DNA from: an uncultured Gammaproteobacteria bacterium
GTDB taxonomy: Bacteria > Patescibacteriota > Microgenomatia > Levybacterales > UBA12049
Assembly (NCBI GenBank): GCA_964598995.1
Contig: CAZRDR010000021.1
Coordinates: 537-64,536, forward strand
Direction of reading: 5' to 3'
Length of the DNA: 64,000 nt
The position numbers were made by a program, and so were the translations under genes. The notes beneath the pieces are model-generated. The model worked only from the letters and a program-made list of their open reading frames with translations, did no database searches and was not told the DNA's origin. Below are positions 17,601 to 49,404 of this stretch, in pieces (position 1 is the stretch's first letter; the number at the start of each line of letters is the position of its first letter).

Positions 17601-19112
17601 GTGCTGCCTATACCCACTATGACAGATCATTTTGATAGATTATTTACCCGCTACCCCATCAAGACCAAGCGTTTTTTAGAACTCATGCCTGGACTTCTCT
17701 CCTGGACTGTCATCCTCTCACCTATCTGGGCCTCACTCTTAGCACCTACGCTCCTTGCCTACTTCATCCTCTTTTTTGATACCTATTGGTTCTACAAATC
17801 ATACTCGCTCGTCATTAATGCCTATCGCGGTGCAAAACGCATCAAGCAAGCAGAAAGAGCTAACTGGCTCGAGAAAGCTAAAAAGTATGACGACTATCGC
17901 AAGGTTCAGCATATTTTGATCATCCCAAGCTACAAAGAAAGTGTGGCAAAGATGCGAACGACCATCGAGAACCTCTCACGCCAAACACTTCCCTTAGACC
18001 AACTTCATGTCGTCCTGGCTATGGAAGAACGCGAAACTGAAGCTCCAGAAAAAGTCAAAGAAATTACTAATGAATTCAAAGGCAAATTCGGCAGCCTTTT
18101 TGCAACGTACCACGTTGATGCGCCTGGGGAGATTAAAGGAAAATCCTCTAACGAAGCCTTTGCCGGCAAAGCTGCCTACCAAAAACTTATTATTGAGGAA
18201 AAACTCGACATCGACTACGTCACGATCTCCAGCGTCGACGTTGATTCTATCTTTGATAAACAGTTCTTCGCCTACCTCACCTATGCATTCTTAAGTGATG
18301 AAAAGCGCTATAACAAATTCTGGCAGTCTGCCACAGTTTTTTATAACAATATTTGGCAAGTACCAGCCCCAATTCGTATCCTCTCATTCTTCGGCAGTCT
18401 TTGGAGGACTTCTATGCTGGTTCAGGGAGATCGTCTAATTACTCAATCCACCTACTCGCTCTCACTTAAACTCTTGCGAGATATTGGCTTCTGGGATGTT
18501 GATGTCATTCCTGAGGACTACCGCGTCTTCTTCAAAGCTTTCTTTAAGATGAAAGGTCAGGTCTGGACTGAGCCGATTTTCCTTAAGACCTCCATGGATG
18601 CAGCTTTCTCGCACGGTTATGTCAATAGTCTGAAGAATAAATACCATCAAGAGCGCAGATGGTCATGGGGAGTCTCAGATGACCCACTCTTCCTTAAATG
18701 GTGGTTCACCGTCCCAGGTGTTCCTTTTATGCGAAAAACGATTATGGTTTATCATGTCGTTCTCGATCATTTCCTCTGGCCGGTTAACTGGTTCGTCGTA
18801 ACGATTGCAGCCAACGTCATGCCTTTTGTAAATCCTGTTTTCTCACGAACTGAACTTGGCTATATCTTACCTCGTGTTGCAGGATCGATCTTAACCTCAA
18901 CGATCTTAGCTATTTTTGCCCTGATGTTCATCGACTATAAGAATCGTCCTGAGAATACGACACTCTCTCTTCGCCGTAAGATATTCTTCCCTTTTGAATT
19001 TATTCTGATGCCTATCGTTGGATTTTTCCTTTCAGCGCTTCCTGCTTTGATATCTCATACGCAACTTATGTTAGGTAAGCGTATGGAGTACAAAGTAACT
19101 GATAAAGCATGA
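17601..19112 (+). CDS. Membrane-embedded processive family-2 glycosyltransferase (cellulose/chitin/hyaluronan-synthase-like)
   Basis: N-terminal TM helices, then the GT-A motifs IIPSYKE, SVDVDS (DxD) and QERRWSWG (a QxxRW-type processivity motif), and several C-terminal TM helices. Confidence 0.65.
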   Translation: MLPIPTMTDHFDRLFTRYPIKTKRFLELMPGLLSWTVILSPIWASLLAPTLLAYFILFFDTYWFYKSYSLVINAYRGAKRIKQAERANWLEKAKKYDDYRKVQHILIIPSYKESVAKMRTTIENLSRQTLPLDQLHVVLAMEERETEAPEKVKEITNEFKGKFGSLFATYHVDAPGEIKGKSSNEAFAGKAAYQKLIIEEKLDIDYVTISSVDVDSIFDKQFFAYLTYAFLSDEKRYNKFWQSATVFYNNIWQVPAPIRILSFFGSLWRTSMLVQGDRLITQSTYSLSLKLLRDIGFWDVDVIPEDYRVFFKAFFKMKGQVWTEPIFLKTSMDAAFSHGYVNSLKNKYHQERRWSWGVSDDPLFLKWWFTVPGVPFMRKTIMVYHVVLDHFLWPVNWFVVTIAANVMPFVNPVFSRTELGYILPRVAGSILTSTILAIFALMFIDYKNRPENTTLSLRRKIFFPFEFILMPIVGFFLSALPALISHTQLMLGKRMEYKVTDKA

Positions 19113-20614
19113 AAGAACATATCAAACGACTTGAGAGGTCACATGAATTCTGGACTGTTATTGGTCTAGGTGTTGTCTTCTTTCTTCTCCGCCTTCCTTC
19201 TCTGTTCGAGCCATACTGGTATGGAGACGAAGGAATATACCAGACACTCGGACTTGCCATAACAAAAGGCCGCATACTCTACACAGGTATTTGGGATAAC
19301 AAACCTCCATTGCTCTACTATACGTATGCCCTCGTTCACAGCAGTCAGTTCGCCATTCGCTCCCTTTCACTCCTCGTCGGACTAGGAGCAATCGCATTAC
19401 TTTTTCTTTTAGCTAAAAAATTATTTAATGATCGGAAGAGTGCGCTTATTGCAACTGGCGTCTTTGTACTTTCTTTTGGCCTCCCGACATTCGAGGGTAA
19501 TATCGCAAATGCTGAGAACTTCATGCTGCTCCCCATTATCGCTGCAGGGTATGTAATCTACAGTCTGGTAACAAAGAACAGAGACTTCACATCAACCACA
19601 TCTTTGAAATTAGTTTCAGTAGCAGGTCTACTCCTAGGCTTTGCGTTCCTCTATAAAATAGTCGCTATCTTTGATTTTGCTGCTTTTTTTGTTTTTTTGA
19701 TTATCAGCACTTATCGCGAGAGATTTACCCGTGAGCAGATATTCTCCTATCTAAACAACGTTTGGAAACTCTTTGGGGTATTCATCGTTGGCTTTATCTT
19801 TCCTTTCTTTCTGACTATTCTCTATTTCGCTCTAAACCACGCGTTAGGGGAGTATATTCGCGCAACTTTCTTAAGTACCGTCGGCTATGTCGGATATAAA
19901 AATGCCTTTATCATCCCGCAAGGCTTACTCATCTCTAAAGTTATTATTCTTGCCATCTTTTGTCTGATACTCTTTATCAAAAGACAGAAGACCTCATCAA
20001 CTACACTATTTATTAGTCTTTGGGTTGCCTTCTCATTGTTTAATAGTTTCTTCTCTCAGCGTCCCTACACCCATTACGTATTAGTGCTCGTTCCTGCTTT
20101 TTCATTACTCGTTGGCAAAACATTTTTGGAAAGAAAATCTCAGCTAGTTAAATATGCAGTTATTACACTTATCGTCGGGTATCTGGGTATTCATTATTTC
20201 GATCACTGGAACATCAGCAAAACGATCCATTACTATACTAACTTTACGAGCTTTACGAGTGGAAACAAATCAGTGAACGCGTATGACACCTTCTTTGATA
20301 GAAGAACTATCCGTGACTATGAAATTATTTCGTATCTCAACCAACATAAACAAAAAGATTCTACACTCTATGTCTGGGGTAATGATGCTCAGATTTATCC
20401 TCTGACTGGTACTATCCCTCCGGGAAGATTTACTGTCGCGTATCACGTTGCAGGCAATCATAAGTATGAAAAGGAAATAGGAGACATCCTGAAGAACAAT
20501 CCTCCCCATTTTCTTGTGATCATGCGCGATGTGCCAGTTTATCCATTCCCGATGTATAATTACCGACAAGTACTAAGCGTACAGAATGCTGATATCTATG
20601 AACGGAACAATTAA
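19109..20614 (+). CDS. GT-C fold polytopic glycosyltransferase (ArnT/PMT, GT39/GT83-like), polyprenyl-phosphate-sugar dependent
   Basis: It has 10+ TM helices. The first extracytoplasmic loop contains YWYGDEGIY, the DE/DD motif typical of ArnT/PMT-like GT-C enzymes. Its start overlaps the GT2 stop (ATGA). Confidence 0.6.
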   Translation: MKEHIKRLERSHEFWTVIGLGVVFFLLRLPSLFEPYWYGDEGIYQTLGLAITKGRILYTGIWDNKPPLLYYTYALVHSSQFAIRSLSLLVGLGAIALLFLLAKKLFNDRKSALIATGVFVLSFGLPTFEGNIANAENFMLLPIIAAGYVIYSLVTKNRDFTSTTSLKLVSVAGLLLGFAFLYKIVAIFDFAAFFVFLIISTYRERFTREQIFSYLNNVWKLFGVFIVGFIFPFFLTILYFALNHALGEYIRATFLSTVGYVGYKNAFIIPQGLLISKVIILAIFCLILFIKRQKTSSTTLFISLWVAFSLFNSFFSQRPYTHYVLVLVPAFSLLVGKTFLERKSQLVKYAVITLIVGYLGIHYFDHWNISKTIHYYTNFTSFTSGNKSVNAYDTFFDRRTIRDYEIISYLNQHKQKDSTLYVWGNDAQIYPLTGTIPPGRFTVAYHVAGNHKYEKEIGDILKNNPPHFLVIMRDVPVYPFPMYNYRQVLSVQNADIYERNN

Positions 20615-20951
20615 ATTTCTCTCATCTGATCGAACAATCTGGCTCTGTATTATTTGCTCTCTGATATTCATCTTACTTAGTCTTTTTTTTACGGGACTTT
20701 TTTATCATAACCTCCCTCCGCTCATTCCAATTTTCAATCAACTGCCATGGGGAACAGATCGCTTGATGAGTAAACTTGGACTCCTTATTCCTATCGCAGT
20801 TTGTCTTGGGATTCTTGTTATCAACGCATTTACGACTCGATATATCTATGAAAAAATGCCAATCACAGCAAGGATGCTCAACATCACGACATTCCTTATC
20901 ACTCTTCTTACCTTAATTTTTGTCTTTCGAACGATTCAATTGATTTTATAA
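20586..20951 (+). CDS. Small 3-4 TM membrane protein (GtrA/ArnE-like flippase candidate), hypothetical
   Basis: 121 aa, hydrophobic, overlapping the 3' end of the GT-C gene. Its size and topology resemble the small flippase subunits that accompany GT2/GT-C pairs. Confidence 0.3.
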   Translation: MLISMNGTIKFLSSDRTIWLCIICSLIFILLSLFFTGLFYHNLPPLIPIFNQLPWGTDRLMSKLGLLIPIAVCLGILVINAFTTRYIYEKMPITARMLNITTFLITLLTLIFVFRTIQLIL

Positions 20952-20952
20952 T

Positions 20953-22023
20953 ATGATTTTTTCTATCATGCTACCGCCGTTATTATTAGCTTTTGTGGTG
21001 ACTGTTGTTGCTACGTATCTTTTATTACCACTCATCACAAAATTAGGTCTCGTTGATGATCCTAAAAAGCATATTCATCCAGCAATTCTTCATTCTAAAG
21101 TTATCCCTCGCGGTGGGGGTATCCCTCTTTTTATAGGCATTCTGCTGGCAAGTCTCATTTTTATTCCTATTAATTCTGTAACAATTGCCATTTTTTTCGC
21201 GGCACTATTAGCGCTTGTGATTGGCATCATCGACGATAAATTTAACGCGATCTCAAAAGACGTCTCACCTTATCTCCGCTTTCTCGTTAATATTCTGTGC
21301 GCTGTTATCGTCGTCGGTTCAGGAGTGACAATCCCTTTTATTACTAATCCTTTAGGAGGGATCATTAATCTAGGACATAATGTTTTACCATTCCTTCCGA
21401 TTACTTTTGGCGATATTATCACTGGTATGTGGATTATCTGGGTGATGACGATGCTTAACTGGAGTAAAGGAGTGGATGGCCAGATGCCGGGAATAGTTGC
21501 TATCTCTGCACTCGTTATTGGTGTACTTAGTTTACGTTTTCCATTTCTAGATAGCACCAGTCTTATCGACGCTAAACTCTCCTTTATCATTACGGGAGCT
21601 GCACTTGGCTTTTTACTCTTCAATTTTTATCCAGCCAAAATATTTCCTGGCTATGGGGCAACGAGTATGTATCTTCTTCTAGCGGTCGTGTCTATCCTCT
21701 CAAGTGCTAAATTAGCCACAGCAATTCTGGTGATGGGTGTACCAACAGTCGATGCTGTTTTTACTATCCTAAGACGACTCCTTGAGGGAAGATCACCCTT
21801 CTGGGGAGATAAAAAACACCTTCATCACCTTCTCCTTAGGCTTGGCTATAGCCAACGGCAAATCGCGTTGTTTTATTGGGCAATCTCTGCTATAGTGGGC
21901 ACAATTGCTCTTACCGTACACAGCGAAAGTAAACCTTTTGCTCTCCTTCTTTTATTTGCTCTAGCTGGAGGCGGACTACTTTTTTTACATTTATTAATGC
22001 GCAATGAAAAAGACAGTTCGTAA
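20953..22023 (+). CDS. MraY/WecA-family (GT4) polyprenyl-phosphate N-acetylhexosamine-1-phosphate transferase
   Basis: 10-11 TM helices. The IIDDKFN Asp-Asp motif sits in the first cytoplasmic loop, with a later NWSKGVDGQ segment in the position of the MraY/WecA DG(L)DGLA motif. It is 356 aa. Confidence 0.6.
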   Translation: MIFSIMLPPLLLAFVVTVVATYLLLPLITKLGLVDDPKKHIHPAILHSKVIPRGGGIPLFIGILLASLIFIPINSVTIAIFFAALLALVIGIIDDKFNAISKDVSPYLRFLVNILCAVIVVGSGVTIPFITNPLGGIINLGHNVLPFLPITFGDIITGMWIIWVMTMLNWSKGVDGQMPGIVAISALVIGVLSLRFPFLDSTSLIDAKLSFIITGAALGFLLFNFYPAKIFPGYGATSMYLLLAVVSILSSAKLATAILVMGVPTVDAVFTILRRLLEGRSPFWGDKKHLHHLLLRLGYSQRQIALFYWAISAIVGTIALTVHSESKPFALLLLFALAGGGLLFLHLLMRNEKDSS

Positions 22024-22951
22024 TTATCTACGTCTACTCAGACCTCGCCAGTGGTCTAAAAATTTCGCGATCTTTGCTGCGATCACTTTCGGCGGGCAGC
22101 TCTTAGTTTGGAACAGCCTAGTTACAGTTGTATTTGGCTTTCTTATCTTTTGTTCACTTTCAAGTGCTATCTACGTTATCAATGATATTTTTGATATTAA
22201 TAAAGACCGGCTGCATCCTTTTAAAAAATTCCGCCCAATTCCCAATGGTGATATCCCAATCCCGACTGCAATCGTGATCGCAATCATCCTTGCATCAGTT
22301 GCTATCATCGGGAGTTCATTTATCTCCCCAGCTTTTTTCCTTTTGACGCTTTCCTATATGCTTCTCCAGATTCTTTATTCAGTTGTAATGAAAAATATCG
22401 CAGTCATTGATATTCTCGCACTTGCGGCAGGATATATCTTGCGAGTATACGCAGGCGAATTTTTAAGCGGTTATCATATCTCTGTCTGGCTTTTACTGAC
22501 TACTATTTCGCTTTCTCTCTTCTTAGCTATTGGAAAAAGACGTCGAGAATTAACATTAGTATCAGAAGATAGTACTAAAAATATTGCACTTATCAGGAAA
22601 ACACTCTCCCACTATTCAGAGAGACTTCTTGATGTTTATACCTCCATCTTTGCAACCTCAACGTTCATCTCTTATTCTCTTTTCACTTTTTTGGAGAACT
22701 CACATCGATATACTATTACTAATGATCTCCTCTTCCCAGATTTCTTACCAACATCACTCAATCAGAGAAAATGGTTAATGCTTACGATTATCCCAGTCGT
22801 CTATGGGCTGATGCGCTATATGCAGGATATTTATGAGAAACACGAAGGCGAAAGTCCAGAGAAAGTACTTTTTTCGGATAAACCACTGCTGGCTACCATC
22901 ATGATCTGGGCGATCATGGTTTTCGTTATTATCTACATCGTCCAGGGGTGA
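22004..22951 (+). CDS. UbiA-superfamily prenyltransferase, decaprenyl-phosphate phosphoribosyltransferase (DPPR synthase)-like subfamily
   Basis: YVINDIFDINKDRLHPFKKFRPIPNG contains the NDxxDxxxD first Asp-rich motif followed by HPxK(R/K)FRPI. From memory this is characteristic of the Rv3806c-type 5-phosphoribosyl transferase subfamily. It has 8-9 TM helices and is 315 aa. Confidence 0.6.
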   Translation: MKKTVRNYLRLLRPRQWSKNFAIFAAITFGGQLLVWNSLVTVVFGFLIFCSLSSAIYVINDIFDINKDRLHPFKKFRPIPNGDIPIPTAIVIAIILASVAIIGSSFISPAFFLLTLSYMLLQILYSVVMKNIAVIDILALAAGYILRVYAGEFLSGYHISVWLLLTTISLSLFLAIGKRRRELTLVSEDSTKNIALIRKTLSHYSERLLDVYTSIFATSTFISYSLFTFLENSHRYTITNDLLFPDFLPTSLNQRKWLMLTIIPVVYGLMRYMQDIYEKHEGESPEKVLFSDKPLLATIMIWAIMVFVIIYIVQG

Positions 22952-23803
22952 TTATTGTTTTTGGGCGTACTGACTGCTTATCCACCCGACTGTCCCATCA
23001 GTGAGTTTTATCTGATACCATCCATCAGCTTCCGTAACAAGGTCAAATGACTGACCTGGCAGGACTTGGCCAACCGCTGCAGCTGCAACACTTGCACTAG
23101 CCCTTACTCGTAAGAAACCTGTTGGTGTCTGGAGAATCGTTACCTTACTCTTAACTGGAGTCGGCGTTGCTGAAGGAGAAGCTGATTTAGTCGGCGTAGG
23201 CGTCGTCTGAGCTCCACTCTCATCATCAACACCTAAATAAACTGAGGCAATAAGCTTATAACCACTTGGTGTACGTATTCTCACTTTTTTATCAGCATAG
23301 CCTGCTTTTTTCAGCGTTAGCTCATGATCCGAATCAGTAATATTCTTAATTAGAAGCGGTGAGTAACCAGAGGAATTATTATCGAGTAACACCTCGACAG
23401 TATCAGGAATAGACGTAATCAAAAGTTGTCTATCATTACCATTTTTTAATGGCTCAAGCGTAATAATACTGCCTTCACTCGCTGCTCCGGCACCGAATTT
23501 TCGATCAACGACTGTGAGAATTGACTTAGAGATACTGATCTTTTCCTGGAACTCACTATAGTTGCCGCTATTAGGGACAACGCGAATTGTATAATCACCT
23601 GTTCCGATCATGTCATTAGTGTTACATTTACACAGAGGTGTTTGGCCGAGATATTTCCCATTCAAATAGACTTTACTCTGCGGCGCAGCAGTTACTTGCA
23701 ACGCACCTTTATCATTTCCCCGAAGGAGAATTGACTGCACCAGGAGAAAAACAATAGCTGCAAAGATGAAAGATGGAATGAGGATTAAAAGAGCTTTCTT
23801 CAT
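22952..23803 (-). CDS. Membrane-anchored PEGA-domain protein with T/P/S-rich linker and C-terminal SH3b-like domain
   Basis: An N-terminal TM anchor is followed by two PEGA-like beta-sandwich repeats (SKVYLNGKYLGQTPL, VEVLLDNNSSGYSPLLIKNITDSDHELTLKKAGY), a TPTPTKSASPSATPTP linker, and a C-terminal GWYQIKLTDGTVGWISSQY segment typical of SH3b. Confidence 0.5.
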   Translation of the reverse strand: MKKALLILIPSFIFAAIVFLLVQSILLRGNDKGALQVTAAPQSKVYLNGKYLGQTPLCKCNTNDMIGTGDYTIRVVPNSGNYSEFQEKISISKSILTVVDRKFGAGAASEGSIITLEPLKNGNDRQLLITSIPDTVEVLLDNNSSGYSPLLIKNITDSDHELTLKKAGYADKKVRIRTPSGYKLIASVYLGVDDESGAQTTPTPTKSASPSATPTPVKSKVTILQTPTGFLRVRASASVAAAAVGQVLPGQSFDLVTEADGWYQIKLTDGTVGWISSQYAQKQ

Positions 23804-23851: not shown

Positions 23852-26038
23852 TTATGAGGCTGGTTGTACACCCAGGATCTCGACAGTTCCACCGCAGTAT
23901 TTGGTGATAATCTCACAGGTCTCACGTAACACTTTTTCAACCTGAGCAGGTGTAATATCAAAAACTCCATCGACGTTAATCAGCACATTTTTAGTTGTGA
24001 GACTAACAGCTGTCCGCAGACTATCACGATAATTAAGGTCAAGATTATACGGACCTTTTTGATCAAAATAAGCAAGCTCACCATCTTTACAGGTTGTTTT
24101 TTCGTCATCACCTAATAGAAGGATCGAATCAGTTGAGGTTGCGAGACAGAGCTCAGTCGGCAAAGCTATCTCATCCAAATCAAACGCTCCAACCGAGACA
24201 TGATGCTTCATAACAACCAGGTTATATGCATCAACAAGAGTATTAACAGTGTACAAACCTTTTTTTAAGGCAACTCGTCTTAAAAGAGCCTCAGGACTTG
24301 GTCTGCGCGAATGCCAATCAATTCCCATATCCTTATAGAGTTTTCTATAACTCACAATTTCAGGGAATGATCCGATCTGTTCTGTAGTAAGAGTCTCAAA
24401 CGAACTGAGTAATTCCTTTTTTGCTACTTCTAATTCCTTATCTTCTGTCTTAATAGTCACATTTTTAATAATCGCAACTCCAGTTGAGAGGGAAGGAAAT
24501 TTTTCAGCAGCAGCTGAATTAATAGAAAAAATCTCAGGCTTATTAAGTACTGTCAGTTCTTTTTCTTCGTTACGTGCTCCTGTTTGAGGTTTGTTCTCGA
24601 CTTTTAGCGTTGGGAAAAGAACAACTTCTTTAACTGCCCAGGTATTCGTCAAAAACATTGTTAAGCGGTCGATCCCGATACCAATGCCACCTGTTGGTGG
24701 CATACCGTATTCCATCGCCAGTAAGAAATCTTGATCAATCTGCTGGGCTTCCTCGCGGTCTTTGCGAGTTGCGTTGGTATCTTTGGTAAAGCGTTCGCGC
24801 TGGACTTGTGGATCAGTCAGCTCTGACCAGCCGTCAAAAATTTCTTTTCCGCCGACATATCCCTCAAATCGCTCAACCCAGCCTGGTTTGGAACGGTGAG
24901 GTTTGGAAAGTGGACTGATATCTTCTGGATAATCGATGATCCAGGTTGGTTCTTTGAGGGTTTTCGGGATAATATGATCAAAAATCATAAATATCAGCTG
25001 ACCTTTAGTCTCTCCACCTAAGATTTCCATCTGAGGACAGTGCTCTTTCGCAAATGCCAAAAGTGATTCAACTGTCGCTGTCTCAACATCAAGCCCCAGT
25101 CGTTCCTTCAGGATCGTTGCCATCTCAATTCGAGGCCATTTATTACCGATATCTATTGTCTGGTCATCTACTTGTAATTTGGTATCACCGTAAATTTTAG
25201 TTGCCAAATGCTTGAGTAGTCCCTCAGCAACATCCATGACCCGGTTATAGTCAGCATATGCTTCATACCACTCAATCATCGTAAATTCAGGGAAATGTGT
25301 CTGGTCAATACCTTCGTTACGAAAATCTTTACAGATTTCATAAACTCGTTCATAACCGCCGACTATCAGGCGTTTGAGATAAAGCTCATCTGCGATACGT
25401 AAGAATACATCTTGATCAAGAGCATTAAGGTGGGTTTTAAAGGGTTTGGCATTCGCACCGCCATAAAGCGGCTGAAGAGTTGGAGTCTCGACTTCCCAGA
25501 ATCCAAGTCCATCGAGGTACTCTCTAACTCCTCGGACGACTTTAGTACGCACATTAAAGCGTTCACGAACATCAGGGTTAAGTAGAAGATCCAAATAACG
25601 CTGTCGATAGCGAGTCTCAACGTCTTTGACGCCAAACCATGTACTCGGCAGAGTCCGCATCGCTTTAGTAAGAAGGGTATATTCAGTAGGTGCGACTGAG
25701 GTCTCACCAGCAATTGTCTTGACGACTTCACCTTTCACACCAATGATGTCACCAAGATCTAAGAGCTTAAGATTTTTAAAAGCCTCTGCCCCAAGGAGAT
25801 CTTTTTTGAAGAAAAGCTGGATTTTACCTGTCTCATCCTGTAAATCGGCGAAAGCGATATTCCCATGCTCTCGGAAAGACATGAGCTTGCCGGCTGTACT
25901 GACAGTCTCACCCATACTAGACAACGCGTCCTTGACCATGTGAGTCTTTGGATACGACGCAGCATAAGGATTCCAGCCTAGGGCTTTAATTTTCTCTAGT
26001 TTTTCTTTACGAACTTTTATTAATTCTGAATCATCCAT
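23852..26038 (-). CDS. lysS: Class II lysyl-tRNA synthetase with ~230-aa C-terminal B3/4-like (PheT editing-domain-like) extension
   Basis: An N-terminal OB anticodon-binding domain is followed by a class II core (motif 2 FRNEGIDQTHFPEFTMIEWY, motif 3 GIGIGIDRLTMFLT). After about residue 490 there is an extra domain containing LVDAYNLVVMKHHVSVGAFDLDEIA...LGDDEKTTCKDGELAYFD, which matches B3/4-domain hallmarks (AxN..s...g.p.hafDld). Confidence 0.85.
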   Translation of the reverse strand: MDDSELIKVRKEKLEKIKALGWNPYAASYPKTHMVKDALSSMGETVSTAGKLMSFREHGNIAFADLQDETGKIQLFFKKDLLGAEAFKNLKLLDLGDIIGVKGEVVKTIAGETSVAPTEYTLLTKAMRTLPSTWFGVKDVETRYRQRYLDLLLNPDVRERFNVRTKVVRGVREYLDGLGFWEVETPTLQPLYGGANAKPFKTHLNALDQDVFLRIADELYLKRLIVGGYERVYEICKDFRNEGIDQTHFPEFTMIEWYEAYADYNRVMDVAEGLLKHLATKIYGDTKLQVDDQTIDIGNKWPRIEMATILKERLGLDVETATVESLLAFAKEHCPQMEILGGETKGQLIFMIFDHIIPKTLKEPTWIIDYPEDISPLSKPHRSKPGWVERFEGYVGGKEIFDGWSELTDPQVQRERFTKDTNATRKDREEAQQIDQDFLLAMEYGMPPTGGIGIGIDRLTMFLTNTWAVKEVVLFPTLKVENKPQTGARNEEKELTVLNKPEIFSINSAAAEKFPSLSTGVAIIKNVTIKTEDKELEVAKKELLSSFETLTTEQIGSFPEIVSYRKLYKDMGIDWHSRRPSPEALLRRVALKKGLYTVNTLVDAYNLVVMKHHVSVGAFDLDEIALPTELCLATSTDSILLLGDDEKTTCKDGELAYFDQKGPYNLDLNYRDSLRTAVSLTTKNVLINVDGVFDITPAQVEKVLRETCEIITKYCGGTVEILGVQPAS

Positions 26039-26086: not shown

Positions 26087-26902
26087 CTACCTTTTATTGA
26101 TAAAGCTCGACCCTTGTCTCCCTCCTTGAATCCGAGCTTGAGCTCGCTGTAACGTCTCACCTGACATTTGTGAGAAATCCAGCTCATCAAACTGTCTAAC
26201 TACCTGCCACCGAGAGTTAGGTAATGAAAAATTACGACCACCTTCTACTAGTTGTTGTGATAACAGCTCTTTATCTTCGTGTCGTTGGGGTCGATACCAG
26301 ACATAAGGTACGATAACTACATCACTATTCCCGCCTGTAGCGATCGCTGGCCTGGAAGTCACCCCCCCTGTGAACCCAAAATGAGCACCAGCCCGAGAAG
26401 ACTTTAAGAGAAAACAACTGGAATCCGAACCTACCATATCTGCATTAACCGCACCAGCCAGATAACCCTCCGACTTCTCACAGAATATCTGGTCAGAAAA
26501 TGTATCAATCGCATAGGGAACCCTCGGTAAGTTAGCTACCCTATCTGAAAGAGCAGGCGACATATTCTCTATTGGGAGTTGGGAATGAAGAACGGCCAGA
26601 ACAAATGGGAAATTCCCTCGTTCTCCTCTCTCAACTCTTTGCCATAATTCACCAAGTAACTCCATCGTTTCCTCACGCTGTGCCAACTCTGAGATAACGC
26701 CACTTGGAGTATGACTACTCCCTGCCAACGTTAATTCTGCTTGAAGTGCTGTCGCGAGAGCTTTTGTTCCATTTCCGATCGCTATATAAGGATTCGCCAG
26801 CAGCCTCCTTGCCTCATCTAACAAATGCTGATCTATCCGTTGTTCTTGCCGATCTCGCATTACCGTTGACTCATCTTGATATGTATTAAATTCAGTACTC
26901 AT
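26087..26902 (-). CDS. Hypothetical protein (271 aa), no recognisable domain; R/Q/G/A-rich composition unlike neighbours
   Basis: A long ORF with no motif I can assign. It starts 9 nt after the hairpin and T-tract of the upstream terminator. Confidence 0.45.
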   Translation of the reverse strand: MSTEFNTYQDESTVMRDRQEQRIDQHLLDEARRLLANPYIAIGNGTKALATALQAELTLAGSSHTPSGVISELAQREETMELLGELWQRVERGERGNFPFVLAVLHSQLPIENMSPALSDRVANLPRVPYAIDTFSDQIFCEKSEGYLAGAVNADMVGSDSSCFLLKSSRAGAHFGFTGGVTSRPAIATGGNSDVVIVPYVWYRPQRHEDKELLSQQLVEGGRNFSLPNSRWQVVRQFDELDFSQMSGETLQRAQARIQGGRQGSSFINKR

Positions 26903-27056: not shown

Positions 27057-28022
27057 CTAATCATTGATAATGACAACTTCAGGTTCTGGACGAAAACCGA
27101 ACGTCTCGGCAAATTTATCCTGAATTTCTTTGATGAGTGTCTTTACATCTTCTCCTTTAGCGTGATCGATATTAACAATGTAATTGGTGTGTTTTGAAGA
27201 GACCATCGCCCCCCCGACTTGTTTTTGGGAGAACCCCAAGCGATTAATAAGATATCCCATCGAGACCTTGCCGTACCATTTTTGCTCTGATAATTCTCGG
27301 ACCTCTGGCCAAACCTTAAATATTTTTTCCTCTTCTTCTTTATGCGTTATATTCTTAAATACAGAACCACAGGATGGATATTCCATCGGGTGATGCGTCT
27401 GACGATAGTCGATATTTTTTCTGTAGACCTCTTCTGCTTCTTGGACCTCTGCGACGCTCCCTTCTTTTAATTGAAATGTCGCTGAGACGATGAGAAGATT
27501 TGGGTGATGCTTAAAAAAACTGTCACGATAGCCGAAATGTGCTTCAGTATGAGAATAAGTCTTAATCTTGAGTTCAGGATCGGTGATATCGATGACTTCT
27601 GCCTCAAAGAACGTATCTTTCGTCTCTGCGCCAAAGGCACCTGCATTCCCGCGTACTGCCCCTCCGACACTGCTTGGTAGTCCACCAGCCCACTCAAGGC
27701 CTACTAATGACTCACTGATACTTTCTTTAATGAGTGAATCCATCGTCTCCCCTGCGAAAGCTTTTATTTTCGTTCCTTTCCTCTCAAAAGATGTTCCATC
27801 ACCACTTAAAAAAATTACTGCCCCTAAAAAAGGGCTATCTGGGAGAATGACATTTGAGCCAAGTCCGAGGATCAATATATCGTTGATGTCTTTCTGTCTG
27901 CAAAAGTCCAAGGCTTCTTTAACTTCCGCAACATTACTGACTTCAAGGACGAAGCGCGCCTTGCCGCCAATTTTATAATAAACTAACTCAGACAAAGGAA
28001 AATCTTCACGGATAAGCATCAT
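27057..28022 (-). CDS. murB: UDP-N-acetylenolpyruvoylglucosamine reductase MurB
   Basis: It has an FAD-binding PCMH domain (ILGLGSNVILPDSPFLGAVIFL) and a C-terminal MurB domain. It is 321 aa. Confidence 0.85.
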   Translation of the reverse strand: MMLIREDFPLSELVYYKIGGKARFVLEVSNVAEVKEALDFCRQKDINDILILGLGSNVILPDSPFLGAVIFLSGDGTSFERKGTKIKAFAGETMDSLIKESISESLVGLEWAGGLPSSVGGAVRGNAGAFGAETKDTFFEAEVIDITDPELKIKTYSHTEAHFGYRDSFFKHHPNLLIVSATFQLKEGSVAEVQEAEEVYRKNIDYRQTHHPMEYPSCGSVFKNITHKEEEEKIFKVWPEVRELSEQKWYGKVSMGYLINRLGFSQKQVGGAMVSSKHTNYIVNIDHAKGEDVKTLIKEIQDKFAETFGFRPEPEVVIIND

Positions 28023-28040
28023 GAGGAGAGTATACGGCTT

Positions 28041-28511
28041 TTAGTTAACCGAAACAATGGTATAGTGGATCTTACCAGCTGGTGCCTCGACTTCGATACT
28101 TTCACCAATTTGTTTACCGATAAGAGCTTTACCTAATGGAGATTCATGTGAAATTTTCTTTTCGGCAGGATCTGCTTCCCATTCGCCAACGACTCGATAA
28201 ACTTCCTGTTTGTCATTGATCTTAAGGGTAACTTCTGAGCCAAGAGCAACAGCACTGCCATTTTTGGAACCGCCTTCTTCAATGAGTGAAACCTGCTTGA
28301 GTAACTCTTCAAGTTCATCGATACGTCCATCAATAAATGAAAGCTCTTCACGTGCAGCAACGTACTCAGCGTTCTCTGAGAGGTCACCTTGATTGCGAGC
28401 ATCAGATACGCGAGTGACAACTTCAGGACGTTTTACCTTAGTTAATTCTTCGTATTCCTTTTTAAGATCTGCTAACCCGTCTTTTGTAAGATATATTTTC
28501 TTTGTATCCAT
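28041..28511 (-). CDS. greA: Transcription elongation factor GreA
   Basis: It has an N-terminal coiled-coil (LTKDGLADLKKEYEELTKVKRPEVV) and a C-terminal FKBP-like domain. It is 156 aa. Confidence 0.9.
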   Translation of the reverse strand: MDTKKIYLTKDGLADLKKEYEELTKVKRPEVVTRVSDARNQGDLSENAEYVAAREELSFIDGRIDELEELLKQVSLIEEGGSKNGSAVALGSEVTLKINDKQEVYRVVGEWEADPAEKKISHESPLGKALIGKQIGESIEVEAPAGKIHYTIVSVN

Positions 28512-28517
28512 ATTTAT

Positions 28518-28550
28518 CTAAAAAATCCCTCCTTTTCTGTAAGAGAGGGG
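28518..28550 (-). terminator. Hairpin + T6 in the greA 5' leader (minus strand CCCTC-N13-GAGGGATTTTTTAG), candidate leader attenuator/terminator
   Basis: A GC stem with a T6 run sits between the predicted greA promoter and the greA ATG (28511). Confidence 0.4.
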
Positions 28551-28579
28551 AAGTATTTGGTATATGTAAACCAGAGAAA

Positions 28580-28609
28580 GTATAGATAAAAATTAGTCAA
28601 TTTGTCAAT
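28580..28609 (-). promoter_or_regulatory. Sigma70-like promoter for greA (minus strand TTGACA-N18-TATACT)
   Basis: A perfect -35 hexamer and a near-consensus -10, about 70-100 nt upstream of the greA start. Confidence 0.45.
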
Positions 28610-28677
28610 GATATTTAACCACGACCTGTAGTTGAGTTATCCAAGTATATTGGTAAATAATTAGAAGGTGTATAGTA

Positions 28678-29535
28678 TTATTTTTGGTCATGTAAGCGTT
28701 CGTGGAATTGTGATATGACAGTCTTTCTAGCATCATTCGGATGAAAAGCCAGACGATCATTACCAATAGTTTCAGTCGTTTTATGAGAAGAAATAATCAG
28801 CAGTTCGAGTGATCTGACAATCGGTTCAAAAAATACTAATAATTTGTAAGGACGTTTTTTAAGCTGCCTAAAGTTAACAGCTCTCCCTTTAGCATTCGGT
28901 AGTATCTTGTGTGTCCAACTATTTACTTCCAAAAATCTTTCGTAGGTTTTATCCCTATCAAATAAAGGATACAGTTGCATGATTTCCCTAGCAGTGTAAA
29001 TATCCTGAAATTTTTTAGGGAATGCCATCCCTGACTCAGTTACTAGCATGTTGAGACAGAATTTATTATTAGGGTGAGCGTCCTGACGTTTACGTCTTTT
29101 GCCGCTTAATTGTAAGAGCAGTAATAATAAGAGGCGTGAAGAAAAAAGTGTCCGATCAGCTGTAATAACAAAAAGGTCGATATCATCATCCTGCGCTGCA
29201 TTCATTGCTGCGACACTTCCACTCACACCTACGAATAACACGCTTGGGATTAACGACAAATAACGCCCAACGGTTATAGCTAAACGTAGTTTTGTATCTG
29301 AAAATTCTCTCTTTTCTTGCGATACATCTATCGTCTGTGGATAGTTCTTCAAGGCTACATATCCGTTCTTCATGATAATAGTATCTCGATATGAGGAAAG
29401 AGCATCTTTTACTTCTTGCAAAGTAGCAGGATGTGCGCTTTGCCAGAAATAATGAAGCTCTTCTATCGTTAATGCTGCGTTAAAAAGGTGAGAATAAAGA
29501 AGTGTGTGGATTACTGCTTTTTTATTACTGCCCAT
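28678..29535 (-). CDS. Pol-beta-superfamily nucleotidyltransferase domain protein with ~90-aa N-terminal domain
   Basis: GVSGSVAAMNAAQDDDIDLFVIT fits the G[SG]-x9-13-DxD minimal nucleotidyltransferase signature. No partner genes (HEPN, effector, etc.) are adjacent. Confidence 0.5.
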   Translation of the reverse strand: MGSNKKAVIHTLLYSHLFNAALTIEELHYFWQSAHPATLQEVKDALSSYRDTIIMKNGYVALKNYPQTIDVSQEKREFSDTKLRLAITVGRYLSLIPSVLFVGVSGSVAAMNAAQDDDIDLFVITADRTLFSSRLLLLLLLQLSGKRRKRQDAHPNNKFCLNMLVTESGMAFPKKFQDIYTAREIMQLYPLFDRDKTYERFLEVNSWTHKILPNAKGRAVNFRQLKKRPYKLLVFFEPIVRSLELLIISSHKTTETIGNDRLAFHPNDARKTVISQFHERLHDQK

Positions 29536-31051
29536 ATTTGCTTAAAACTTGGTTTACGCCTTGGGCGAGCGTCTGAATAGCTGTCTGACCGGATGTACTT
29601 CCATTTGAACGGACTGCATTACCTAAGTATCCGTTCATTTGATCATTAATGCCATCGTCATACGTATTGCTCACGAAATAAGATGAGACAGCATAATTTG
29701 CCTGTTCTAAGAAAGGCGCTAAGAGTGGATTACTCTTAACAGTCTGGGCAAGATCACGACGGGGATATGGCTCTCCAAATAATCTCGTCTTGGCTGTCTC
29801 GGTATAGAGTTTTTGAAGCGTCTCTTTCTGAGCCAGATACTTCATAAATAACATTGCTTCTTTTTGATGAGGGGAACGAGATGATACGCCTTCTACCCAG
29901 TAACTCGCGAGTGTCTTCTGACCTCCCGGAAGATTTGGGACAGGGTGAACGCTAAAATTTAGCGTTGGGTTAAGAGCTTTTATAGCAAAGATATCCCAGG
30001 AGTAACCAAAGTACATCGCTAAATTACCTTTAGCAAAAGCTGTCTGGGTCGGATCAAGAGTACTATCCCAGACACTCCCCTCGTCTTTAGCGAAGGCTGT
30101 ATAGAATTCGAGAGCTTGTGCAGCATTATTCTGTGTTTTGGAGAAGTTGGTAAAATCAGTTCCATTTTGCGCCATCAGAAGGGCTATGATATCGGGAGCA
30201 TGTGTAACATTATCATAAGTTCCTAAACCTGCACCTGCCGTTAAAATCTTGCCATCAGCATCTTTAACAACTCTATCTTTAGCTACCTTTATGAATTCAT
30301 CCCACGTCTTTGGCACACTATTACCCCCTGCGCTCAACGCATCATTATTTACAAAAAGTGCGAGAGTGTCTATTTCTAACGGGACGCCATAAAGTCCACC
30401 ATTACGAACGAGATCCTGCTGAATGACTGGATAAAAATTGGCTTTAAAATCTGTCGGCGACATAACATCTGCGGTCATAGTCGAAAGATATGGCTTCATC
30501 ATCCCTACCCATGAATTGTGGAACCTATACATATCGGGACCGTTGCCATTGGTTATTTGTGTAACTAAGCTTTTACGATAATCTTTAATGTCTTTCTGAA
30601 TATAATTAATAGTGATGAGCGGATGCTGAAGATGGAAATCATCTATAAGTGTCTGCATTACTTGCTTGTTTTCAAAAAGTCCCCAGTACGTAAGCGTTAC
30701 TGGTTGATCCTTAGGAGTTGATTTGAATCGCGGCAGAACGAGAAATATGATAGCAAGGACTATAAGAAGTACCCCAACTACGATCCCTGCAATTTTTAGA
30801 ATACCCCCAAATCCAGATGATGAAGGAGGTTTAGGTAAGACGGTATCTGTTGGCGGAGGCGGTGTACCTACTGTTGCGGCAGGCTGGGCAGGTGGTGGAG
30901 GTGGTGTCTGAGGCACGACCGGAGCTGCCACCGGTTGTTGCGGTGGTGTCGTGGGCGTAACAGGTGGAGGTGACTGTTGGGAATCTTTGGAAAAGATAAC
31001 ATTTTCGTCCATAAGGGCGTTATGTATAGTATAATACGTGCTATACACCAT
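29525..31051 (-). CDS. Membrane-anchored extracellular solute-binding protein (ABC transporter SBP family 1-like) with Pro-rich N-terminal stalk; no cognate permease/ATPase nearby
   Basis: A cytoplasmic N-terminus and PPPVTPTTPPQQP...PPPPAQP stalk are followed by a TM helix (GILKIAGIVVGVLLIVLAIIFLVL) and an SBP_bac_1-like body (LTYWGLFENKQVMQTLIDDF..., many W/Y residues). Confidence 0.65.
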   Translation of the reverse strand: MVYSTYYTIHNALMDENVIFSKDSQQSPPPVTPTTPPQQPVAAPVVPQTPPPPPAQPAATVGTPPPPTDTVLPKPPSSSGFGGILKIAGIVVGVLLIVLAIIFLVLPRFKSTPKDQPVTLTYWGLFENKQVMQTLIDDFHLQHPLITINYIQKDIKDYRKSLVTQITNGNGPDMYRFHNSWVGMMKPYLSTMTADVMSPTDFKANFYPVIQQDLVRNGGLYGVPLEIDTLALFVNNDALSAGGNSVPKTWDEFIKVAKDRVVKDADGKILTAGAGLGTYDNVTHAPDIIALLMAQNGTDFTNFSKTQNNAAQALEFYTAFAKDEGSVWDSTLDPTQTAFAKGNLAMYFGYSWDIFAIKALNPTLNFSVHPVPNLPGGQKTLASYWVEGVSSRSPHQKEAMLFMKYLAQKETLQKLYTETAKTRLFGEPYPRRDLAQTVKSNPLLAPFLEQANYAVSSYFVSNTYDDGINDQMNGYLGNAVRSNGSTSGQTAIQTLAQGVNQVLSKYGQ

Positions 31052-49308: not shown

Positions 49309-49379
49309 CGGGGATTAGTTTAACGGTAGAATGCGCGGATGGGGTCCGTGTGACCGGAGTTCAATTCTCCGATCCCCGA
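49309..49379 (+). tRNA. tRNA-Pro (anticodon GGG), 71 nt, no encoded CCA
   Basis: Hand-folded. Acceptor stem CGGGGAT/ATCCCCG (7 bp). D-arm GTTT-AACGGTA-GAAT, including GG in the loop. Anticodon stem CGCGG/CCGTG with loop AT-GGG-GT (U33 present, anticodon GGG). T-arm CGGAG-TTCAATT-CTCCG. Discriminator A. Confidence 0.8.
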
Positions 49380-49404
49380 CTAAAAAATGCTAAACTAAAT
49401 TTAT

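Follow-up and report, generated by a model that had tools for sequence, protein, structure and literature searches.

CtdA is a stand-alone canavanyl-tRNA-Arg deacylase that has been characterised experimentally (PMC10018355). Its aminoacyl pocket consists of N105, G116, E118, C166, Q173 and I189, of which only N105 is common to the editing site of PheRS, where N254 of E. coli PheT positions the catalytic water (PMC12449066). CtdA is inactive as the N105A variant and is also inactivated by G116H, G116W and Q173G, while its specificity is tuned by C166 (PMC12449066). Here we analysed a 64,000-nucleotide stretch of contig CAZRDR010000021.1 (GCA_964598995.1, positions 537 to 64,536, forward strand), called the window throughout, in which a minus-strand gene encodes a class II lysyl-tRNA synthetase (LysRS) extended at its C-terminus by a B3/4 module. 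The window protein is a genuine class II LysRS as well as a true member of PF03483, and it is CtdA-like in fold and catalytic core.

Errors made by LysRS are also addressed by known quality-control systems (PMC7373986). Class II LysRS clears homocysteine, homoserine and ornithine by pre-transfer cyclisation, which occurs in the synthetic active site and without a B3/4 fold or a LysRS-fused domain, and Ser- and Thr-tRNA-Lys are trans-edited by ProXp-ST1 and ProXp-ST2, free-standing INS/YbaK-superfamily proteins that, unlike the window protein, have no B3/4 fold and no LysRS fusion (PMC7373986). A sequence-only reading of the window had put forward ornithine and homoserine as possible targets of the extension, but these are not the most likely substrates because both are already handled by this pre-transfer route. 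LysX, in which LysRS is fused to the MprF lysyl-phosphatidylglycerol synthase, likewise joins a class II LysRS to a second domain acting on the aminoacyl-tRNA product, but there the extra domain is a membrane transferase that sits at the N-terminus and has no relation to B3/4. The LysX model NF002821 matched only the LysRS part of the window protein with 500 bits against a cutoff of 742, and the window protein is therefore not LysX.

The LysRS gene and its C-terminal module

The gene and its domains were annotated as follows.

23852..26038, minus strand: whole gene, coding for a class II LysRS that carries a CtdA-like B3/4 module at its C-terminus (open reading frame list, Pfam, NCBIfam lysS)
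25670..25903, minus strand: N-terminal OB-fold anticodon-binding domain, aa 46-123 (tRNA_anti-codon PF01336, E 1.6e-15)
24605..25621, minus strand: class II catalytic core, aa 140-478 (tRNA-synt_2 PF00152, E 1.2e-84)
24554..24604, minus strand: charged low-complexity linker, aa 479-495, KVENKPQTGARNEEKEL (AlphaFold2 confidence, comparison of relatives)
23855..24553, minus strand: complete CtdA-like B3/4 module, aa 496-728, 233 aa (Pfam B3_4, fold comparison)

The open reading frame (ORF) starts with ATG and encodes 728 aa followed by a stop codon, and both peptides quoted in the sequence-only reading are present in its translation. Over aa 5-480, the product passed the curated cutoffs of NCBIfam lysS_bact TIGR00499 (523 bits against 427.6) and PRK00484 (598 bits against 468), which together with the OB domain and class II motifs 1 (FWEVETP, aa 180-186), 2 (FRNEG...HFPEFTMIEWY, aa 239-258) and 3 (GGIGIGIDRL, aa 450-459) assigns it to class II LysRS over the full core. 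Residues 5-479 aligned to residues 7-491 of the 493-aa G. stearothermophilus LysRS 3a74_A (E 4.5e-132), and because this alignment stops near the end of the solved enzyme, we placed the core end at ~479 rather than near residue 490 as first proposed, with 249 residues C-terminal to it. The gene occupies the housekeeping lysS position of a conserved greA-murB-lysS-PEGA-ubiA-mraY locus, and lysylation of tRNA-Lys by the predicted LysRS would be expected from its homology and this syntenic position. On balance, we favour the view that it serves as the housekeeping LysRS (class II) of the cell, to whose C-terminus a complete CtdA-type module is tethered by a flexible linker. The window contains neither another LysRS nor a further B3/4 copy, and no tRNA-Lys gene. 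Around the lysS gene, an Rfam scan detected no riboswitch and no T-box, and a promoter and terminator scan gave nothing specific, with site counts at the level of shuffled sequences.

Pfam B3_4 (PF03483) matched aa 564-716 with an E-value of 7.3e-21 and 75 bits against a gathering cutoff of 29.3, covering profile positions 2-174 of 174, and this profile match bears out the earlier proposal of a LysRS with a C-terminal B3/4-like extension. The module equals an entire free-standing family member of ~230 aa and begins at the conserved LNKPEIFSI; the corresponding consensus L(N/K)KPE(I/L)FSI marks the module start in both fusion types and is also the N-terminus of the free-standing proteins. When the PDB was searched with the extension sequence, the top matches were the free-standing B3/4 proteins 9mkl_A and CtdA 9f7e_A, with PheRS-beta only marginal, and a search with the family profile retrieved the CtdA structures at 1e-14 and 6e-14 against 3e-6 for the best PheT. 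Fold comparison gave a value of 25.2 with CtdA (9f7e_A, 216/231), 13-16 with the PheRS-beta B3/4 domains (~150-170) and below 8 with the next best match, the TilS C-terminal domain (~100). Since the fold comparison favours CtdA, the extension represents an entire module of the CtdA type, down to the CtdA-specific helical insert in the B3/B4 fold. The likeness to the PheT editing domain noted in the sequence-only reading therefore holds for the B3/4 fold, but the module is of the CtdA type and not of the PheT type.

The same comparison excluded a PheT fragment as well as an EMAPII/OB-type tRNA-binding appendage, the latter being the alternative that the sequence-only reading had named as damaging to an editing function. 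Only ~169 residues of the PheT B3/4 domain align with the module, the window protein lacks the helices specific to PheT as well as the neighbouring domains B1, B2 and B5, and pheT_bact reached 18.8 bits against a cutoff of 402, the only other domains being the LysRS OB domain and core. Among the PheT editing-site residues (H265, G318, E334 and others), only the Asn is shared, and H265 corresponds to G617 of the module. PheT is moreover a rigid multidomain subunit, whereas the window module sits on a flexible tether and on a different partner enzyme.

In the full-length AlphaFold2 model, a calculation that had been suggested along with the original proposal, both halves were individually folded, with a predicted template modelling score (pTM) of 0.47 and no confident inter-domain geometry. 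The linker of ~18 residues had a predicted local distance difference test score (pLDDT) of <50 at aa 476-493, and its sequence is not conserved across relatives. The disordered linker and the low pTM indicate a flexible tether without a predicted fixed domain orientation. The pLDDT was also <50 over aa 181-253 (25280-25498, minus strand), the motif 1-2 region of the core; this region is nevertheless canonical in sequence and aligns cleanly to solved LysRS structures, and the low value probably stems from a shallow alignment and from modelling a dimeric enzyme as a monomer.

Conservation of the pocket

CtdA residues were mapped onto the window module through alignments, and family conservation was read from two alignments (A1 and A2). 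The motifs concerned are listed below.

24275..24310, minus strand: SRRPSPEALLRR, aa 577-588, near-invariant in the family and shared with CtdA (SAEALRKR)
24221..24235, minus strand: VDAYN, aa 602-606, invariant in A1 and A2
24179..24196, minus strand: SVGAFD, aa 615-620, placed by residue mapping to CtdA
24023..24049, minus strand: YNLDLNYRD, aa 664-672, placed by residue mapping, a family-specific and more acidic pocket wall

N606 occupies the position of N105 in CtdA and N254 in E. coli PheT, the only pocket residue that all B3/4 deacylases have in common, and G617 corresponds to CtdA G116 and is invariant in the family. While these two positions are kept at a sequence identity to CtdA of only 16%, the specificity residues E118, C166 (strictly conserved in CtdA) and Q173 (or Glu) are not, with F619 in place of E118, N665 in place of C166 and D672 in place of Q173; in addition, D667 replaces a neighbouring Arg. 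CtdA (PDB 9f7e, 9mkl) is a free-standing B3/4 protein that acts on tRNA-Arg, whereas the module is covalently fused to LysRS and its presumed tRNA would be tRNA-Lys. Because it differs in the specificity residues and is not a free-standing protein of ~230 aa, the window module is not a CtdA.

The replacement residues are near-invariant in the family (SVGAFD, YNxDxNYRD) and are the same on class I or class II LysRS, against a background of 52-57% mean column identity, and the F619/N665/D667/D672 signature is kept in the family at 55-68% overall identity. Since the replacements are themselves near-invariant, the pocket of the window module looks retuned and more acidic, not degraded, and the module has the consensus residue at 33 of the 33 conserved sites checked. 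ArgRS-fused copies retain the CtdA pocket (E118, C166, 'CRRWNWRE/Q'), whereas the LysRS-fused copies of Microgenomates do not, and this partner-specific pattern is the strongest argument for a module acting on the aminoacyl-tRNA of its own partner.

Distribution and architectures among relatives

A pattern scan of the GTDB species representatives identified 456 stretches encoding the module, and LysRS partners were counted in the best 80 of these loci. A class I LysRS body (PF01921 with Anticodon_2) was found in 71 and a class II LysRS in eight, the remaining locus being at a contig end; the module was C-terminal in ORFs of 720-790 aa, or 959-985 aa in three. The family is common in Microgenomates-type bacteria of the candidate phyla radiation (CPR), namely Levy-, Davies-, Gottesman-, Roizman- and Woesebacteria. 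The survey of relatives proposed by the sequence-only reading thus showed that the fusion is no isolated case but the usual state in Microgenomates, where it mostly involves class I LysRS. The class II fusions fall into two core lineages with a mutual identity of only ~40%. The lineage of the window protein comprises ~50 independent 90%-identity clusters, 53-81% identical and all with the continuous fused architecture, which were named in databases, if at all, only 'lysine--tRNA ligase' or 'hypothetical protein'. With the continuous ORF present in these ~50 clusters and in eight GTDB species-representative genomes, an assembly or gene-calling artefact does not account for it.

We also searched 1.84 billion representatives with a family profile and obtained 4,611 relatives, 461 of them at an E-value of 1e-30 or better. 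In the best 150 family representatives, the architectures were as follows.

Stand-alone (270 aa or less): 100
With class I LysRS: 25
With class II LysRS: 15 (two also with an HD domain and one with DUF2000)
With ArgRS: 5
Other or partial: 5
With any other synthetase: 0

The synthetase partners among these 150 were accordingly LysRS (40) and ArgRS (5) only. N-terminal fusions were confirmed by Pfam and NCBIfam for a class II LysRS (P0287), a class I LysRS (P0362) and five ArgRS (P0256, P0275, P0313, P0315 and P0338), so that the module is attached to LysRS in all four topologies (class I or II, N- or C-terminal). The contigs carrying the P0287 fusion (L089-L091) also encode PriA, lipocalin and ankyrin-repeat genes and belong to a different, non-CPR-looking organism, in which the N-terminal B3/4 on a class II LysRS indicates an independent fusion event. 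The ArgRS with N-terminal modules bearing the CtdA pocket look like cis-editing enzymes for canavanine, judging from their residues; one of these relatives, P0256, carries two B3/4 copies. Free-standing orthologues with the same signature occur inside long contigs (P0039, P0040), and the module is therefore a self-contained functional unit. The neighbourhoods of free-standing P0039, P0040 and P0250 gave no metabolic hint to the substrate.

Further domains were observed on related LysRS. P0238 (1072 aa) combines class II LysRS with a PheT-like tRNA_bind domain (PF01588), B3_4 and an HD domain, recreating the PheT B2-B3/4 arrangement on a LysRS. An extra HD/HDIG domain follows B3/4, or directly follows the core in 692-aa forms, in relatives of both LysRS classes (P0147, P0169, P0232, P0238; L007:4670-5347, L019, L024; P0163, P0191, P0216), and its best PDB sequence matches were YqeK-type symmetrical diadenosine tetraphosphate (Ap4A) hydrolases, although weak (E 0.03-0.075). 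Ap4A is a classic product of LysRS, and the HD/HDIG domain provides a lead towards a putative LysRS-Ap4A hydrolase fusion. DUF2000 (PF09391) was found after the LysRS core or after B3/4 (P0217, P0233, P0079, P0085) with a faint PTH2-like match (E 0.063), which makes it, beside B3/4, another candidate for hydrolysing tRNA esters from this C-terminal position.

Synteny and loss of the module

The gene order in the window is sbp, an unknown gene, greA, murB, a variable ORF, lysS::B3/4, PEGA/SH3, ubiA, mraY, a 121-aa ORF and PMT. In three syntenic loci (L025, L042 and L032), the central gene is a class I LysRS-B3/4 fusion, while the neighbours are 86-90% (greA), 85% (mraY) and 76% (PEGA) identical to those of the window, and in a syntenic Levybacteria genome (L084/L085) the central gene encodes a class II LysRS of 486 aa that lacks the module and shares 79% core identity with the window protein.

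Fused and plain forms are intermingled in the tree of class II cores, and no core position separates the 51 fused from the 59 plain class II cores at a consensus of at least 80%. A co-adapted core with a relaxed lysine pocket was rejected on this basis. Module identity rises through 54, 61, 70 and 84% across increasing bins of class II core identity, indicating co-divergence, and the module shows higher conservation (66.6%) than the class I cores to which it is attached (52.0%). From these identity patterns and the intermingled tree, the module is under purifying selection, passed on jointly with its partner and lost repeatedly. Between the window protein and its closest relative P0105, the modules are 67% identical and the cores 90%. 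The neighbour-joining module tree grouped the window with P0105 at 30% bootstrap and with L025 and L042 at 10%, and class II-attached modules were monophyletic in 0 of 200 replicates, a tree that cannot tell a swap of the LysRS body from a cassette replacement.

The flanking cell-envelope genes at 19109-23803 and 27057-31051 are syntenic across Levybacteria and served as anchors for the locus comparison; they encode a PMT-like glycosyltransferase, a 121-aa membrane ORF, an MraY-like Glycos_transf_4 protein, a UbiA prenyltransferase, a PEGA+SH3 protein, MurB, GreA and a solute-binding protein. The variable slot between murB and lysS holds a 271-aa ORF without a Pfam match (26087-26902, minus strand), just upstream of which lies a strong sigma-70-like site (11/12 matches) at 27053-27025. 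Elsewhere this slot is occupied by unrelated genes, namely a 290-aa ORF (L025) or a 356-aa ORF and a histone-deacetylase-like gene (L084). With ARAGORN and Rfam, a tRNA-Pro(GGG) at 49309-49380 on the plus strand was the sole RNA gene found in the window.

Proposed function and alternative explanations

The domain identity, the fold, the conservation at the pocket and the repeated fusion to LysRS and ArgRS specifically lead us to infer a hydrolytic activity, tRNA-Lys as its target and the kind of amino acid edited. Editing is the best-supported function because the nearest solved relative, CtdA, is a proven stand-alone aminoacyl-tRNA deacylase (PMC10018355, PMC12449066), and homology, pocket conservation and the fusion pattern would place the module among the post-transfer editing domains of aminoacyl-tRNA synthetases, which hydrolyse mischarged cognate tRNA and spare the correct product. 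On this reading, which we hold to be reasonably probable, the module would be a deacylase tethered to LysRS for the post-transfer editing of tRNA-Lys that has been mischarged with a cationic analogue of lysine. In this scheme, tRNA-Lys would be charged by the LysRS core, an acceptor 3' end bearing a near-cognate amino acid would be captured by the tethered B3/4 pocket composed of the invariant N606 and G617 and the family-specific F619, N665, D667 and D672, and the ester bond would be hydrolysed at the conserved Asn-centred site, while Lys-tRNA-Lys would be rejected by the pocket and handed on to EF-Tu. Given the four attachment topologies and the disordered linker, the module is probably a tethered trans-editor that resamples the product, and a fixed channel for CCA translocation seems the less likely design.

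The acidity of the pocket argues for a substrate with a positively charged side chain. Thialysine (S-aminoethyl-cysteine) is the leading candidate, the corresponding pair for arginine being canavanine and CtdA. Thialysine and canavanine are natural antimetabolites of lysine and arginine, respectively, with the parallel exporters LysO and ArgO (PMC8498466). The frequent loss of the module without a compensating change in the core fits a conditionally useful defence against antimetabolites, like CtdA.

Several points weigh against such an editing role. For every member of this subfamily, the function is proposed from sequence and fold. An acidic pocket would also suit cognate lysine, which leaves the rejection of lysine unexplained. 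We know of no requirement for post-transfer editing in LysRS. The class I fusions place the module on the anticodon-binding domain, far from the acceptor end, and close relatives with cores 72-80% identical are without the module altogether, which is therefore dispensable. Thialysine is discriminated against far more effectively by class I than by class II LysRS, and since most fusions are on class I LysRS, thialysine is weakened as a universal substrate.

A non-catalytic tRNA-handling appendage, in which hydrolysis has been lost and the module only boosts tRNA-Lys binding or holds the acceptor end, would be in keeping with the tRNA-binding additions that occur in the lineage (the PheT-like tRNA_bind between core and B3_4 in P0238), with the replacement of all three CtdA pocket residues E118, C166 and Q173, and with a deacylase activity that is a prediction. 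The conserved positions are nevertheless those of the pocket, including the Asn essential in CtdA, and near-invariant replacements speak for retuning and not for decay; an affinity tag would have no partner enzyme in the free-standing orthologues, and the module has been lost without compensating change (59 plain against 51 fused cores), all of which makes this explanation unlikely. The module might instead be an active deacylase for another target, such as canavanyl-tRNA-Arg, or a broad trans-editor for which LysRS is just an abundant carrier, given that the closest characterised relative acts on tRNA-Arg, that selection by CtdA rests mainly on the aminoacyl moiety and that a flexible tether would permit action in trans. 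We regard this as improbable in view of the LysRS partner being used in both unrelated classes, in both N- and C-terminal topologies and in hundreds of genomes, and of the different conserved signature on LysRS-fused copies, where ArgRS-fused copies keep the CtdA pocket.

Use of cognate Lys-tRNA-Lys, either by transfer of lysine to another acceptor or by regulated hydrolysis, is if anything slightly more improbable. D667 and D672 in place of the CtdA Arg and Gln would yield a pocket suited to a terminal ammonium group, and LysX, whose model NF002821 matches the window core, is a precedent for a LysRS fused to a consumer of Lys-tRNA, but it would be pointless to hydrolyse the cognate product beside its own synthetase, genes related to an acceptor are not conserved near the locus, and we know of no B3/4 domain with transferase activity. 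The idea that two genes were merged by a sequencing or assembly error, or that the module is a decaying remnant, could draw on the gap between module (67%) and core (90%) identity to P0105 and on the frequent module loss in the lineage; it is effectively refuted by the same continuous ORF in dozens of independent assemblies, the intact set of conserved sites (33/33) and the very confident structure model (pLDDT 96.4), and module identity tracks core identity across pairs, which leaves it hardly any probability.

Significance

LysRS counts as a standard case of a synthetase that lacks a domain for post-transfer editing. A fusion of B3/4 to LysRS or ArgRS is unmentioned in the three CtdA papers, an aminoacyl-tRNA synthetase review and the further literature searched on LysRS, CtdA, CPR and editing, in which the domain name 'B3/4' itself was not searchable; the LysRS-B3/4 architecture is visible in public databases and appears undescribed, as the sequence-only reading had supposed. 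According to the 2023 CtdA paper, no editing domain of ArgRS had been described previously either (PMC10018355). A CtdA-type module on both LysRS classes, with a version bearing the CtdA pocket on ArgRS, would extend cis-editing to the basic amino acids.

We tentatively raise the further idea, which we would not yet put at even chances, that the module is the first dedicated tRNA-Lys post-transfer editing domain, retained in Microgenomates through an exchange of class I and class II LysRS at one locus and belonging to an undescribed set of CtdA-like modules on LysRS and ArgRS. The locus is a natural experiment in which class I LysRS with the module, class II LysRS with the module and class II LysRS alone occur at the same genomic position, and these three states bear on why editing domains are gained and lost. 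The module may also serve as a tool for controlling the incorporation of lysine analogues in engineered translation. Its presence on both unrelated LysRS classes across a large uncultured group suggests an undescribed proofreading step for lysine. If this is true, the module would be the lysine counterpart of CtdA and a second predicted specificity for the poorly understood CtdA-like superfamily, and natural cationic antimetabolites would be a major selective pressure on these amino-acid-scavenging bacteria.

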